A stretch of DNA of 20,329 bases from Candidatus Heimdallarchaeota archaeon. Its GTDB lineage: Archaea; Asgardarchaeota; Heimdallarchaeia; Heimdallarchaeales; Heimdallarchaeaceae. Shown piece after piece: positions 4,751 to 7,487 of this stretch (position 1 is the stretch's first letter; the number at the start of each line of letters is the position of its first letter). A program made the translations under genes and the position numbers. The DNA lies in assembly GCA_030668875.1 (NCBI GenBank), contig DAOVER010000053.1, forward strand, positions 1-20,329, read 5' to 3'. Below the pieces are notes generated by a model. That model searched no databases. It had not been told where the DNA came from and worked only from the letters and a program-made list of their open reading frames with translations.

Positions 4751-4882
4751 TTAAGATATAATGAAAAGCCACACGGTGGTAGTGGAACAGGAATAGAGAG
4801 ATTTGTCCAAAAAATACTTAGTTTGTCAAATATCAGAGAAGTACGTTTACTACCAAGAGATCCCACAAGATTACATCCATAG
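4751..4882 (+). pseudogene. aspS: 3'-terminal fragment of archaeal-type aspartyl-tRNA synthetase
   Basis: Reads LRYNEKPHGGSGTGIERFVQKILSLSNIREVRLLPRDPTRLHP*, which is class II aaRS motif 3 (PHGGxGxGxER) plus the AspRS C-terminus NIRE..(F)PRD..RL.P. There is no start codon, an in-frame TAA lies upstream at 4721, and the fragment ends in TAG TAG TAA. Convincing similarity begins at 4769. Confidence 0.85.
4856..4880 (+). repeat. Copy 1 of an imperfect 25-bp direct repeat (aspS 3' end)
   Basis: AGAGATCCCACAAGATTACATCCAT matches 7461-7485 at 21 of 25 positions. Confidence 0.65.
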
Positions 4883-4891
4883 TAGTAAGAG

Positions 4892-4914
4892 TTTTTTCTA
4901 TTTTTCTTTCTTTT
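4892..4914 (+). terminator. Oligo-T archaeal terminator retained behind the aspS fragment
   Basis: TTTTTTCTATTTTTCTTTCTTTT directly follows the triple stop. Confidence 0.5.
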
Positions 4915-4983
4915 GAATCTTTAATAAATAGATAGGACTAATTTTCTGTGGTGTATTTATGGGATATTTCAGTTATATAACTA

Positions 4984-6213
4984 ATGAAGAAAACTAAATT
5001 TATCGTACTTGTTCTTATCACAATAGTTCTTCTTTGTAGCACAGTGGAAGGTGCAAGCTCTGCTAAGGATATAGAGATAACAGAAATTAAAATATTGGAA
5101 CAAAATGAAGAGGTGCATATTACTGTAACAAATCTTCCTCGTCCAATAGGTTTTGACGTCTTTCTTAATGGTATAGATGTAACAGAGGGTTGTAGAATAA
5201 GATTTGGAACAGAATTACTTTCAATATGCAGCATTTTAATTGTCCGATTACCAAAAGAATATCTCAACACATCGAATACGCTTTACATTCATTTTTATGA
5301 TCAAATCGATAGTAAAGAGTTCATTGAATCATTTGAGTATTTGTTTTCAGAACCAACAAAAATCAACTGGTGGTTAATATTAGGGTTTGTAATAGGGTTG
5401 ATTGTGTTCAATCTACTAGGAGGAACATTAATGATCAAAAAGGGTAAGAAGGTTGATCATGTAACTAAGAACCTGTTAACAAAGTTACCTACACACAAGG
5501 AAATGACAATAAAAACAGTTATTGCACTAATAATCTCAATTGTGCTATTTGTATACGCCTCGTTCAACCCATATTTCTACTATCCTCAGCTCGTTGATCA
5601 CAATTGGGGATATGTCTACGATTTTCTTGACTATTTTTCAATGGGAGGATTTCTTGTTGTAATTATTGGGTTATCACATCATCTTTTTCTTTTAGCATTA
5701 GGTAGGCATAGAAGAATGTCTAGTACTTCCACAGCAAGTTTAATTGGTACAATGAATTATTATTTTCGTAAAATAATTGGAGGTACAGACACAACTAATT
5801 CCGAATTAAACAAAGAAAAAAGTCCTTCTCTGGTTGTTATTAGTAAAACAATCCTTATTCTTACTATTGTTTTTACAATAAGAATATTAATGTTATTACT
5901 TGTTAGTACACTCTACGATTATTCTCCTTACAACTTCATGCTAGTATTAAGTTCAGAAAACCTCTCTACACATTCAATATATGATACATTGAATATATTA
6001 GTACAAGCTTTATCAGCGATTTTTCTCATCTGTACAGCTTTCAGTTCATTTGTTTCATTAAGCAAATTATATGTACTGATCTTCAAAAAAACAACTAGGG
6101 AAAAGGATAGAAAAAACATTCTAACAATTATTCAAATACTTCTCCCACTTGTTTTCTTTGGGGTTTATCAAGCATGTGTAGGTATTGCTAGTGTAATCAT
6201 TTCAACAAGTTAG
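4984..6213 (+). CDS. Signal peptide + small extracellular beta domain + multi-pass membrane protein; function unknown
   Basis: 409 aa. N-terminus MKKTKFIVLVLITIVLLC, then a ~100-aa soluble domain, a TM helix (WWLILGFVIGLIVFNLLGG), a basic linker and about five more hydrophobic segments. Confidence 0.85.
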   Translation: MKKTKFIVLVLITIVLLCSTVEGASSAKDIEITEIKILEQNEEVHITVTNLPRPIGFDVFLNGIDVTEGCRIRFGTELLSICSILIVRLPKEYLNTSNTLYIHFYDQIDSKEFIESFEYLFSEPTKINWWLILGFVIGLIVFNLLGGTLMIKKGKKVDHVTKNLLTKLPTHKEMTIKTVIALIISIVLFVYASFNPYFYYPQLVDHNWGYVYDFLDYFSMGGFLVVIIGLSHHLFLLALGRHRRMSSTSTASLIGTMNYYFRKIIGGTDTTNSELNKEKSPSLVVISKTILILTIVFTIRILMLLLVSTLYDYSPYNFMLVLSSENLSTHSIYDTLNILVQALSAIFLICTAFSSFVSLSKLYVLIFKKTTREKDRKNILTIIQILLPLVFFGVYQACVGIASVIISTS

Positions 6214-7285
6214 GTTCAGTAGACTTCGTGAGGGATAGTTCTTCTTTATCCTTTTTCTCATGTTGTTGCATAGCTCTCTTAATCTTTTCCGCGAATCCAG
6301 CTATGTGTCGTTTTTCAACTTGTTTGATTCTTTGTTCTTTCTTTTGTCCATAAAAACATTCCACAGTAGCAAACAAGGCAGTAAATATAGCCATCCCAAT
6401 AACAATATGGTTGATATTTATACCAAAAATAGTTTCATAAGACATTGTTTGACTATTTGGAGTTAAATCGTTAGTGTACCCTGTAGTTTTGTCTTTGTTT
6501 TCTATCAATAAATAATAGTGATCCTCTGCATATTCGTTCTCTTCTAGTTCAGAAGTGTAATTACATACAGAATCAATATAACATTTATAAGAAAAAAGCG
6601 TTCCTCTTTCAATATCTATAACAGATTCATACAAAACACTGTATAGCTTAAATAGACTTTCTTCTTCATTTTCATATCGATTATCAACAGTATTGAAATA
6701 TTCGCAATAATAGAAGGTTTCCCTGAAAAGAGCATCTGAAATATAATATAGTAAAGACTCTGTATTAATCAAGATAATAGAATACATCTCACCTATATCT
6801 GTGTAATATTCAGTGTGATTATACTCGGTTGGTTTTATGTGAGCATAATATTTTTCAAATAATAGTGTAAGATTGTCTTGGATTCTGTCAATAACTGGAG
6901 AAATGAAAAAATCCCCATAAATCCAAGTATGAGCTCCAATATGAACATCAGAAGCAGAATAGCGTTTTTCTTGTCCGTTTAAGGAAATATTTAGCCAATC
7001 GCCCTCAGACATCAAATTATTGGGTAAAGCGTTAGGATTACGCGTAACTGTTAGTTTCACTTTATCTCCTTGAGAAAGGTTAGTATCGCTAATACAGGCC
7101 TTAGAGTAAATGGATTCGTTTCCTGACCAATCAATAACATTAACTTGCCACTCTAGCTCTTTCCCCACAGCTAGAAAACTGGAATACAACAAATCACCAG
7201 TTGTTAAAATGGCTTTAGGAGAAGAAGCTTGTAATAATATGCTTGACAATATAACAATAACTAAAAATCTTCTCCCCCCCACCAT
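6197..7285 (-). CDS. Single-pass cell-surface protein (signal peptide, large extracellular domain, C-terminal TM, charged tail)
   Basis: 362 aa. N-terminal RRFLVIVILSSILL, Tyr/Glu-rich body, TM ININHIVIGMAIFTALFATV, then a K/E/R-rich tail. Confidence 0.85.
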   Translation of the reverse strand: MVGGRRFLVIVILSSILLQASSPKAILTTGDLLYSSFLAVGKELEWQVNVIDWSGNESIYSKACISDTNLSQGDKVKLTVTRNPNALPNNLMSEGDWLNISLNGQEKRYSASDVHIGAHTWIYGDFFISPVIDRIQDNLTLLFEKYYAHIKPTEYNHTEYYTDIGEMYSIILINTESLLYYISDALFRETFYYCEYFNTVDNRYENEEESLFKLYSVLYESVIDIERGTLFSYKCYIDSVCNYTSELEENEYAEDHYYLLIENKDKTTGYTNDLTPNSQTMSYETIFGININHIVIGMAIFTALFATVECFYGQKKEQRIKQVEKRHIAGFAEKIKRAMQQHEKKDKEELSLTKSTEPNLLK

Positions 7286-7432
7286 GCTAAATCACTATCT
7301 ACTGAAGCTTATCTTATTTATACACCACAAAAAGTTAATGAAATATTAAGAGTATTTGAAGAAAGATATATTTTAGTTCTAAGAAAATTATGAAACTCAG
7401 CTGTTCATGGACATAGCCTATGTGAAACAGAT

Positions 7433-7487
7433 TCAGAGAACATTAACTGTGTTCTTCATGAGAGACCTCACAAGGTTACATCAATGA
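7433..7487 (+). repeat. Copy 2 of the aspS 3'-end repeat (decayed scar)
   Basis: 7461-7485 AGAGACCTCACAAGGTTACATCAAT translates RDLTRLHQ* against RDPTRLHP* in copy 1, with the stop at the same codon. TCAGAGAA also occurs 20 nt upstream (15 nt upstream in copy 1). Confidence 0.55.

Follow-up and report, generated by a model that had tools for sequence, protein, structure and literature searches.

Probable serial, target-restoring insertion of islands at the 3' end of aspS in a Heimdallarchaeaceae genome

The classic case of integration into a protein-coding gene is that of prophage e14 (and phage 21), located in the 3' end of the E. coli icd gene. Displaced gene ends are also found in the rhs/cdiA genes, where orphan C-terminal modules lie downstream, and Hackl et al. 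2023 reportedly described tycheposons, together with integrase-less satellites, in Prochlorococcus. Target-restoring integrative islands and prophages have been catalogued by Islander/TIGER (PMC4383910). As far as Asgard archaea are concerned, aloposons were, according to a 2024 paper, the only non-viral integrated elements reported before that paper (PMC11529989); in Heimdallarchaeum they consist of tandem genes for 3000-6000 aa and of four upstream genes, one of which encodes a ParA/MinD-like ATPase (PMC8813620). With very few non-viral integrated elements known in Asgard archaea, the aspS locus described here represents a cleanly resolved example, whose useful features are relatives with the site still empty, a target gene of mosaic structure, two scars that have been dated, and at least six cargo sets.

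Organization of the aspS/tRNA-Leu interval

The window, i.e., the whole stretch of DNA that was analysed (20,329 nucleotides), belongs to a metagenome-assembled genome, referred to as G000, composed of 99 contigs (3.23 Mb, 92% complete, 4.4% estimated contamination); the other G and L labels denote the genomes and assemblies of relatives, and all the data are metagenome assemblies. The features considered are the following.

1-2220, minus strand: first 740 codons of the gene for a 2350-aa protein with signal-peptide/transmembrane stretches, cargo of island A (ORF list)
2381-2533, minus strand: relic of an rbcL 3' end, form-III-like RuBisCO large subunit (read from the sequence)
2577-4568, minus strand: SIR2_2-domain protein of 663 aa, cargo of island A (PF13289, E = 1.8e-27)
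4768-4882, plus strand: displaced native aspS 3' end of 37 codons, beginning at motif 3 (GGSGTGIER) and including the stop (nhmmer E = 8.5e-29)
4883-7460, no single strand: island B, two convergent genes plus flanking non-coding DNA
4984-6213, plus strand: island B gene 1, 409 aa, predicted membrane/secreted protein (ORF)
6197-7285, minus strand: island B gene 2, 362 aa, predicted membrane/secreted protein (ORF)
7461-7487, plus strand: aspS-end relic of 27 nt, covering the stop and the 8 codons before it, at island B's far end
7488-7569, plus strand: conserved 82-nt spacer from the ancestral aspS stop to tRNA-Leu (comparison with relatives)
7570-7696, plus strand: tRNA-Leu with an intron of ~48 nt (Rfam RF00005, 39.4 bits, E = 2.7e-5)

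Read from left to right, the locus starts with aspS and its surrogate tail; island A, the displaced native tail, island B, the 27-nt relic, and the tRNA gene follow in this order. A preliminary description of this stretch had called for an intact aspS leftwards, and a whole ORF (449 aa) is indeed present on the adjoining contig C68, whose end shares with the start of the window an exact 103-nt overlap that is unique in the genome and continues one reading frame. The gene for the 2350-aa protein crosses this join and ends 53 nt past the aspS stop on C68; a 2351-aa homologue (83% aa identity) occupies the same location on an independent 101-kb JGI contig. The 2350-aa protein has no Pfam match, and an Atlas search with its N-terminal part gave no usable match.

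The other cargo gene of island A encodes the SIR2 protein, whose C-terminus is TPR-like and which is a candidate defence gene; it is unique to G000 among the 24 genomes of the genus, no homologue being found in the 23 relatives at E <= 1e-10. Directly after its stop, and in the same direction, lies the rbcL relic, with a TAG stop immediately upstream (2534-2536). This relic shares 83% aa identity over 47 residues with the live rbcL gene (C95:24040-24180) and is a foreign displaced tail riding inside island A, whose far end is marked by the aspS fragment at 4768-4882. Island B contains just the two convergent membrane-protein genes that had been noticed between the scars; their signal or transmembrane stretches were predicted by eye, neither has a Pfam family, and both are present in single copy in the genome.

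The right-hand anchor of this hotspot is fixed and is represented by tRNA-Leu. Its gene carries a 48-nt insertion in the anticodon loop, and the anticodon UAA was read from the loop CUUAAGA; although found by Rfam, it was not reported by ARAGORN, probably because of the intron. The spacer preceding it, which probably holds the tRNA promoter, is near-identical over ~75 nt in every close relative, whether or not insertions are present.

Mosaic aspS, empty sites, and relative age of the insertions

The structure of the same interval in relatives discloses the ancestral junction. In at least 16 genomes of the same genus and in at least six metagenome contigs, aspS is followed 80-84 nt later by tRNA-Leu(UAA), in keeping with the ancestral aspS-tRNA-Leu(UAA) junction previously proposed. 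In the insertion-free genomes (at least 16) and in several metagenome contigs, the genes directly downstream of aspS are tRNA-Leu, bactofilin-like genes, SRP54, and Pus10. The empty site is represented both by these relatives and by a co-occurring strain, detected in two other samples, in which a native-type tail is joined straight to the spacer.

The live aspS of G000 is a mosaic gene. Its sequence shares 90-97% nt identity with those of G010, G021, and G016 up to nt ~1215; over the last ~135 nt the identity with the same three genomes is 70-78% (~72%), and that with G002 climbs from ~80% to ~90%. On this comparison, the last ~135 nt of the live gene are foreign. The fragment at 4768-4882 matches the live tail of G016 at 106/114 nt and the live tail of G000 itself at 81/114 nt, which identifies it as the displaced native tail. 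The 32 nt differences between the live and the displaced tail correspond to 18 synonymous and five non-synonymous codon changes, and seven of the eight nt differences between the displaced tail and that of G016 are synonymous; the two copies thus diverged while they were working genes. The longest perfect match between them is ~11 nt, which favours an event at a short core over a homologous crossover inside the repeat. On the other hand, six bases located where island A joins are not native in either copy, and one simple reciprocal exchange does not account for them. In G019 the same pattern is found independently, with a displaced tail resembling those of its own subclade. In spite of the insertion, the live aspS ORF is intact, its surrogate 3' end being that of the island.

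The second scar, at 7461-7487, sits where relatives have the last 8 codons of aspS and is colinear with the aspS end and the spacer; it matches the native tail of G010 at 21/27 nt. A better-preserved relic (RDPIRLHP*) is located at the same place in L047, L048, and L050, and G002 has the same order of tail, island B, and tRNA, without having kept the relic. Island B is common to five assemblies, its homologues (70-82% aa) being embedded in the same position in G002, L047, L048, and L050. The cargo of island A type differs between genomes, with at least six different sets at one junction. The variable surface and defence cargo that the preliminary description expected in relatives is thus observed, and it includes SIR2 and HEPN genes on the defence side and, on the surface side, genes for a giant membrane protein, a NosD beta-helix protein, and a subtilase, so that the aspS/tRNA-Leu interval is a place where strain-specific defence genes of Heimdallarchaeaceae might be mined.

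Between the displaced tails of G000 and G002 there are 16 codon differences, of which 15 are synonymous, so that the two tails were displaced independently after having diverged as live tails. The left boundary of the displaced tail of G000 is the same in six other assemblies, and all displaced tails start within ~8 nt of one position; the DNA to their left is unrelated between most genomes, with ~70 nt shared there by G000 and G002. In G021 (C82 to C14) and G002 (C117 to C89) there is no contig overlap and the arrays are reconstructed across gaps. Scans with the junction motif gave nothing in viral contigs and, in metagenome contigs, just one insertion-free locus.

Both fragments, 4768-4882 and 7461-7487, are in direct orientation at the far ends of the islands, i.e., a displaced aspS tail lies behind each of the two, as expected from successive insertions each leaving a scar. 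The tail and relic comparisons also bear out the earlier idea that, of the two scars, the one closer to the tRNA has the greater age and decay. Island B, which five assemblies have in common, is older, and the insertions of island A type, which vary from genome to genome, are recent.

Taken together, these data make it likely that islands have been inserted serially at the 3' end of aspS, each time restoring the target gene, and that two such events are stacked in G000; the same junction recurs with different cargo in other genomes. According to this scheme, the ancestral state would have been aspS, a spacer of 80-84 nt, and tRNA-Leu(UAA). Island B, with its two membrane-protein genes, would have entered 27 nt before the aspS stop, bringing replacement codons that kept aspS whole and displacing the 27 nt with which the gene had originally ended to the other side of the island, where they would persist as the relic 7461-7487. 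Later on, island A, carrying the 2350-aa protein gene, the rbcL tail relic, and the SIR2 gene, would have entered at the codons for motif 3, ~135 nt ahead of the stop, and would have supplied the surrogate tail, the then resident one being pushed to 4768-4882.

Recombination route and alternative explanations

In each event, the chromosome may have recombined conservatively, at a short core, with a DNA that bore an aspS-tail copy, in keeping with the logic by which integrative islands restore their target; as neither the islands nor the genome encode such a recombinase, the enzyme might have been provided in trans or have been lost afterwards. No integrase, casposase, or transposase was found when the ORFs of at least 80 aa of seven island variants (including those of G000, G002, G019, G021, L047, and L050) were compared with Pfam; PHROGs was also searched with the three main island-B ORFs of G021 and with two ORFs beside the G019 aspS. 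The whole genome has no match to PF00589 at E <= 0.001 (14/14 control genomes were positive), and Cas1 (PF01867) is absent from the whole 92%-complete genome. Five small serine recombinases are encoded in the genome, all of them elsewhere than in the islands, and tyrosine integrases are present in 12/24 genomes of the genus. No terminal inverted or direct repeats and no attC-like repeats above shuffled controls were detected at the island ends. Neither an excision joint of the exact array nor a circle junction was found in the assembled contigs of four runs, which cannot show rare forms, and pattern scans disclosed no free element. The additional scars anticipated by the preliminary description did not emerge when the nhmmer aspS-tail profile was run on island A and the rest of the genome.

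The two insertions lie at different positions of aspS, ~135 nt (island A) and 27 nt (island B) before the stop, which speaks against a site-specific account. The presence of an rbcL tail in island A shows that cargo can travel with the tail of another locus, which is not predicted by a strictly aspS-specific integrase.

A possible, though less probable, explanation is that the same serial insertions occurred without any site-specific enzyme, circular or linear DNA that bears an aspS-tail copy entering through the homologous or microhomology-mediated recombination of the host, in the manner of a Campbell-type single crossover; cargo would then be swapped between strains, with the tRNA flank and both tails, live and displaced, as homology arms. 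The absence of an integrase from the island variants and of tyrosine recombinases or Cas1 from the genome fits this idea, as do the rbcL tail accompanying the SIR2 gene, the mostly unrelated DNA immediately left of the displaced tail (leaving no conserved arm), and a possible microhomology, AGAGAY, found at the left edge of the relic and just past the native stop codon. In addition, at no fewer than 11 further loci of the genome a 3'-terminal stretch of 60-330 nt of another gene is repeated 0.6-6 kb downstream, and, on inspection only, no common motif is visible at the junctions of these 11 tail-repeat loci. The self-comparison from which they derive gave 13 pairs, equal to 12 loci, C66:3860 having two orphan copies; the pair at C9:10751 was set aside, as it probably reflects only the shared acidic tail of neighbouring ribosomal stalk paralogues. 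However, live and displaced tails that are 72% identical, with no more than ~11 nt of perfect match, would be a poor substrate for strand exchange, the crossover always falls at the extreme left edge instead of being scattered, and the tyrosine integrases of 12/24 genus genomes could act in trans.

Even more tentatively, it might be speculated that Heimdallarchaeaceae add accessory cassettes at the 3' ends of many conserved genes without a dedicated integrase: DNA entering with a gene-tail copy would recombine with the resident gene and displace its tail, the displaced tails forming both an age-ordered trail and homology anchors for cargo swapping. If so, this would be an archaeal functional counterpart of the integron, built on host recombination, and aspS would be one of at least 12 such platforms in the genome. 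The lack of a detectable tyrosine integrase or casposase, combined with the same architecture at many genes, makes gene acquisition in these archaea a question that is directly testable by long-read metagenomes.

It is very unlikely that the locus was generated by a local, tandem duplication of the end of aspS, after which the spare copies decayed and unrelated DNA inserted between them, with no foreign tail imported. In favour of such a duplication, the direct repeats share one orientation and shorten progressively towards the outer copy; nevertheless, the copy that diverges from the closest relatives is the live tail and not the spare one, the differences are mostly synonymous (18 versus five codons) and hence not due to decay, and the pattern recurs independently in G019, whose displaced tail is like those of its own subclade. 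The divergent live tail and the mostly synonymous changes contradict this reading.

Very improbable, too, is an assembly or binning artefact, in which the joining of contigs from different strains would have produced the apparent mosaic and the repeats. The genome is indeed split into 99 contigs with an estimated contamination of 4.4%, one of the breaks between contigs lies within island A, and variants of the strain occur together. On the other hand, the mosaic aspS is on the same single contig as 4.9 kb of the giant gene, and a 5.3-kb contig of an independent Logan assembly covers positions 2292-7601 without a break, linking the SIR2 gene to the tRNA by way of the displaced tail, island B, and the relic. 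The order of tail, island B, and tRNA is also found in L047, L048, L050, and G002, from other projects; in L047, an independent assembly, the same giant gene lies beside them.

The preliminary description had spoken of an integron-like array. It appears extremely unlikely that this is a true integron-like platform, where a dedicated recombinase captures single-gene cassettes at a fixed promoter-side site, even though the insertions are ordered and one-sided and their cargo is enriched in defence and surface genes. The genome has no IntI-type or other tyrosine recombinase, the island ends have no attC-like or inverted repeats, and the cargo consists of multi-gene blocks on both strands, with genes of up to 7 kb and no cassette polarity; furthermore, the two junctions are at different aspS positions and the scars differ in size (~115 nt and 27 nt). 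The defining features looked for, namely IntI, attC, and single-gene cassettes in one orientation, are thus lacking, and the label is not supported.

Finally, the match between the two scars from which the preliminary description started might be a chance likeness in AT-rich intergenic DNA. Reading by eye and a script gave the same result as that description: 4856-4880 and 7461-7485 are identical at 21/25 bases, and encode RDPTRLHP* and RDLTRLHQ*, respectively, with the stop in the same codon. In the 3.23-Mb genome (both strands, 6.46 million positions), only three sites match the 25-mer at 4856 at 20/25 or more, i.e., 4856 itself, the intact aspS tail on C68, and 7461. The best match in 300 Markov-simulated windows was 15-18/25, none exceeding 18/25; the analytic expectation of at least 21/25 is 3e-5 per window strand and 0.01 per genome. 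The shuffled controls that the earlier description suggested agree, the local-alignment score being 34 against 15.6 +/- 2.3, with 0/2000 shuffles as high. Relative to the closest insertion-free relative, the relic matches at 21/27 (binomial P = 4e-7, its position being fixed by the conserved spacer). The match is far above chance level. The octamer TCAGAGAA, reported upstream of both copies, is present at 4833-4840 and again at 7433-7440; nonetheless, the similarity upstream of 7461 that includes it is not significant alone (G000, L047, and L050, p 0.05-0.6). The repeat is short and the nhmmer aspS-tail profile scores the relic at just E = 0.29 within the 12.5-kb island, so that the comparative position carries the case; with the genome-wide search, the simulations, a location exactly at the ancestral aspS end, and the same relic in three independent assemblies, the probability of chance similarity is practically negligible.

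Comparison with known systems

The islands of the aspS locus share with the aloposons (PMC8813620) the archaeal group, a giant gene, and integration beside a tRNA gene located downstream of the giant gene. The differences reside in a single 2350-aa gene, the lack of a ParA-like Pfam match, and the aspS junction: instead of tandem giant genes and a ParA/MinD-like set, only the SIR2 gene and the rbcL relic are found beside the giant gene, a distinction made by gene content.

Known archaeal integrase or casposase elements also occupy the 3' end of a conserved protein gene, supply the stop, re-use the site in tandem, and have insertions verified against empty sites in relatives. The recombinases of these elements are tyrosine integrases or Cas1 casposases, and their att sites or target-site duplications are short (median 17 bp), whereas the aspS islands show neither a recombinase nor terminal inverted repeats and have a surrogate tail ~135 nt long. 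As for casposons in particular, neither PF01867 nor terminal inverted repeats are present, and, instead of a 14-15 bp target-site duplication, the repeats are of ~115 nt and 27 nt and represent diverged alleles.

Like tycheposons, the aspS islands carry variable cargo at the 3' end of a conserved gene, with partial repeats of the target and many units devoid of an integrase; tycheposons, however, target bacterial tRNA genes and have integrase-bearing members, none of which was found among the aspS islands. The likeness to the islands of the Islander/TIGER type comprises the surrogate 3' end that regenerates the target, the original fragment displaced as a direct repeat at the far end, the foreign live tail, and the re-use of the site leading to tandem arrays. 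The aspS islands depart from them in having no integrase in seven island variants or in the genome, in targeting aspS in an Asgard archaeon, in the different gene positions of the two events, and in that no excised form was seen in contigs.

Lastly, rhs/cdiA genes resemble aspS in that recombination at a conserved segment substitutes a new 3' end for the resident one, and the displaced 3' fragments stay behind in order, together with companion genes; but in rhs/cdiA the 3' end is the variable payload (the toxin tip), whereas in aspS it is a conserved housekeeping tail, and the payload lies beyond the stop.

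The short repeat and the ancestral aspS-tRNA-Leu junction

The genome (G000) is a metagenome-assembled genome of 99 contigs, with 33% GC and a completeness of 92%, and the window is one complete contig of it (C24); the sequencing runs containing its DNA are marine sediment metagenomes. The named sequences that cluster with its SRP54 assign it to the Heimdallarchaeaceae. The intact aspS expected leftwards of the window was found on the adjoining contig C68. The right end of C68 and the start of the window are identical over 103 nt, a sequence present nowhere else in the genome, and one reading frame runs on through this overlap. 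The assembly break falls within a 2350-aa ORF, at this overlap; a 29%-identical paralogue of the same ORF occupies C55:1-1431, at the end of that contig. The order of the locus is supported by the agreement of independent assemblies, i.e., a JGI contig of 101 kb (L047), harboring a 2351-aa homologue beside the displaced tail, island B, and the tRNA, and a Logan contig of 5.3 kb covering 2292-7601. The features are the following (window positions unless a contig is named):

C68:98004-99353, intact (live) aspS, 449 aa, archaeal type
1-2220 plus C68:99406-104341, joined ORF of 2350 aa with signal peptide and transmembrane segments, without known domain
2381-2533 (-), 3' relic of rbcL (RuBisCO large subunit), within island A
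4768-4882, displaced aspS tail
4883-7460, island B, two convergent genes for predicted membrane or secreted proteins
7461-7487, aspS relic
7488-7569, spacer
7570-7696, tRNA-Leu(UAA)
7854-8753, bactofilin-like gene

The direct repeat with matching stops reported in the preliminary description is genuine: the 25-mers at 4856-4880 and 7461-7485 are identical at 21 of 25 positions, with stop codons in the same register and TCAGAGAA located 16 nt (4856 copy) and 21 nt (7461 copy) upstream. Chance similarity is rejected by three results. On both strands of the 3.23-Mb genome, at least 20/25 identities to the 4856 25-mer were found only at its own site, in the intact aspS tail, and at 7461; simulated windows gave best matches of 15-18/25, the expectation for at least 21/25 being 3e-5 per window strand; and the shuffle test of the local alignment yielded 0/2000. 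The nhmmer profile alone scores the relic weakly (E = 0.29 in 12.5 kb) and located none of the further scars for which an aspS-tail search had been proposed.

The alignment of the tRNA-upstream regions is decisive, and settles 7461-7569 as the aspS end plus spacer. In G010, the closest relative (aspS 93% identical at the amino acid level), which is without insertion, the final eight codons of aspS, its stop, and the spacer align in the same order with this segment; the homology ends directly left of the Arg codon at AGAGAY, and the relic is identical at 21/27 positions (P = 4e-7 with the position fixed). The postulated ancestral linkage was recovered in 16 same-genus genomes, where aspS is followed by a gap of 80-84 nt, tRNA-Leu, one or two bactofilin-like genes, SRP54, a 188-aa ORF, and Pus10, and in additional insertion-free contigs obtained from other projects. 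The bactofilin-like gene is single in G000, and many relatives have two copies in tandem (two matches in L024-L033 and L036-L038). In three further assemblies carrying island B (L047, L048, and L050) the relic is at the same place, is better preserved, and encodes RDPIRLHP*; in G002, where island B is present, it has been removed by a deletion of ~130 nt.

A mosaic aspS and the order of the insertions

The live aspS of G000 is a mosaic. Of its 1350 nt, the first ~1215 are 90-97% identical at the nucleotide level to those of G010, G021, and G016, and the remainder 70-78%; over this last stretch, its identity to G002 climbs from ~80% to ~90%. The displaced tail matches the live tail of G016 at 106/114 positions and its own live tail at 81/114, and is the native copy, barely decayed. 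Seven of its eight nucleotide differences from G016 are synonymous, and of the codon changes caused by the 32 that separate it from the live tail, 18 are synonymous and only 5 non-synonymous; since the differences are mostly synonymous, the two tails diverged while still part of functional genes, each in its own lineage. The insertion-free genomes have the native tail type in common, and the live tails of G000, G002, and G019 represent a distinct type. The displaced tail of G019, a member of another subclade, resembles the native tails of that subclade, so that here an event of the same architecture took place independently.

Island B and the preceding aspS fragment are shared by G000, G002, L047, L048, and L050, with 70-82% amino acid identity. 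The DNA between the live aspS and the fragment is different in every genome, in agreement with the variable cargo anticipated for relatives; L050, G002, and G019 each harbor a further, differing set.

Cargo of the aspS-tRNA-Leu region
G000 (island A): giant gene, rbcL relic, SIR2 gene
L047: giant gene and four other ORFs, before the fragment
G019: NosD-like beta-helix protein, ABC transporter, and 1247-aa protein before the fragment; subtilase after it
G021: HEPN-domain proteins

The rbcL relic follows the SIR2 stop and shares 83% amino acid identity with the live gene (C95:24040-24180). Apparently, the SIR2 cassette was once located behind rbcL and moved along with its tail; cargo is thus able to bring with it the tail of another platform.

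Sixteen codons differ between the aspS fragments of G000 and G002, 15 of them synonymously; therefore, these fragments were still live while diverging, and were displaced later and separately. This, together with the shorter and more decayed relic, supports the insertion of island B first and of island A later, and bears out the proposed age order, with the more decayed scar nearer the tRNA being the older. The scar is genuine, the locus is a two-step, age-ordered island stack at the aspS 3' end, and this end is a hotspot in repeated use across the genus.

Strain variation and tail repeats elsewhere

Two additional samples from the same study contain a contig, with a depth about one third of the main one, in which a native-type tail (to 4882) continues after seven bases into the spacer (at 7493); it is an allele without island B. 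Its interpretation as an excision product of this array was rejected, since the tail of G021 is followed by the identical seven bases, which thus mark a different strain. Contigs from other samples of this study show several differing continuations directly after the tRNA 3' end (7699-7702); presence/absence variation among strains is pointed to on both sides of the tRNA.

The tRNA was found by Rfam, ARAGORN returning no tRNA in the window; its insertion of ~48 nt in the anticodon loop is read as an archaeal-type intron. The intron region is variable among relatives, in many of which BLAST splits the gene in two. Just downstream of tRNA-Leu, before the bactofilin-like gene, ORFs of ~650 aa with a Cas12f1-like TNB (TnpB-type) domain are located in G021 (L040:3943-5913) and G012 (L024:13824-15782). 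Partial 3' tRNA duplicates of 35-48 nt occur in G012 (L024), one of them adjoining the TnpB-like ORF, and in G023 (L027). On the basis of these ORFs and duplicates, the tRNA side of the hotspot is also used, by a different kind of element.

The self-comparison of G000 disclosed at least 11 other loci (on C10, C15, C29, C61, C66, C75, C92, C94, and C95) in which a second copy of the terminal 60-330 nt of an ORF lies 0.6-6 kb downstream, in the direction of the gene, and six pairs in the opposite arrangement. The repeated segments end 0-40 nt past the stop (132 nt at the C61 locus). The copies in these tail-repeat pairs differ by 93 synonymous and 85 non-synonymous codon changes, i.e., more synonymous than expected from random change; for C92:3779-4105 versus 5815-6141 the figures are 34 and 8.

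Junctions, mechanism, and known systems

The displaced tails all begin within ~8 nt of one another, at motif-3 codons, and the DNA to their left is unrelated between genomes, except for ~70 nt common to G000 and G002. Short-core site-specific recombination, by an enzyme that was supplied in trans or has disappeared since, is the mechanism that we infer as somewhat probable. Neither island has terminal inverted repeats, the live and displaced tails match perfectly over ~11 nt at most, and scans for a free element with the junction motif found none. No recombinase was detected among the island ORFs (minimum length, 80 aa) of seven variants (Pfam scans, and PHROG for some), and neither PF00589 (tyrosine recombinase, not even Xer-like) nor Cas1 had a match in the 92%-complete G000 genome, whose five small serine recombinases are all on other contigs. 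PF00589 matches occur in only 12 of the 24 genus genomes, so that such an enzyme could act in trans.

Recombination by the host, either homologous or mediated by microhomology, is a less probable alternative. AGAGAY, at the left edge of the relic, is repeated just past the native stop and is a possible microhomology. Some other mechanism altogether is improbable. The island A junction contains six bases native in neither copy; therefore, the history may include a later whole-block transfer between close strains.

The locus is not an integron, and the integron-like label was abandoned: the scanned ORFs lack a recombinase, and by its architecture the locus belongs with target-restoring integrative islands, which are known at tRNA genes and some protein genes of bacteria and archaea (PMC4383910, PMC6563490). 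What is unusual here is the lack of any recognisable integrase, the Asgard host, and the occurrence of the same pattern at many genes of one genome.
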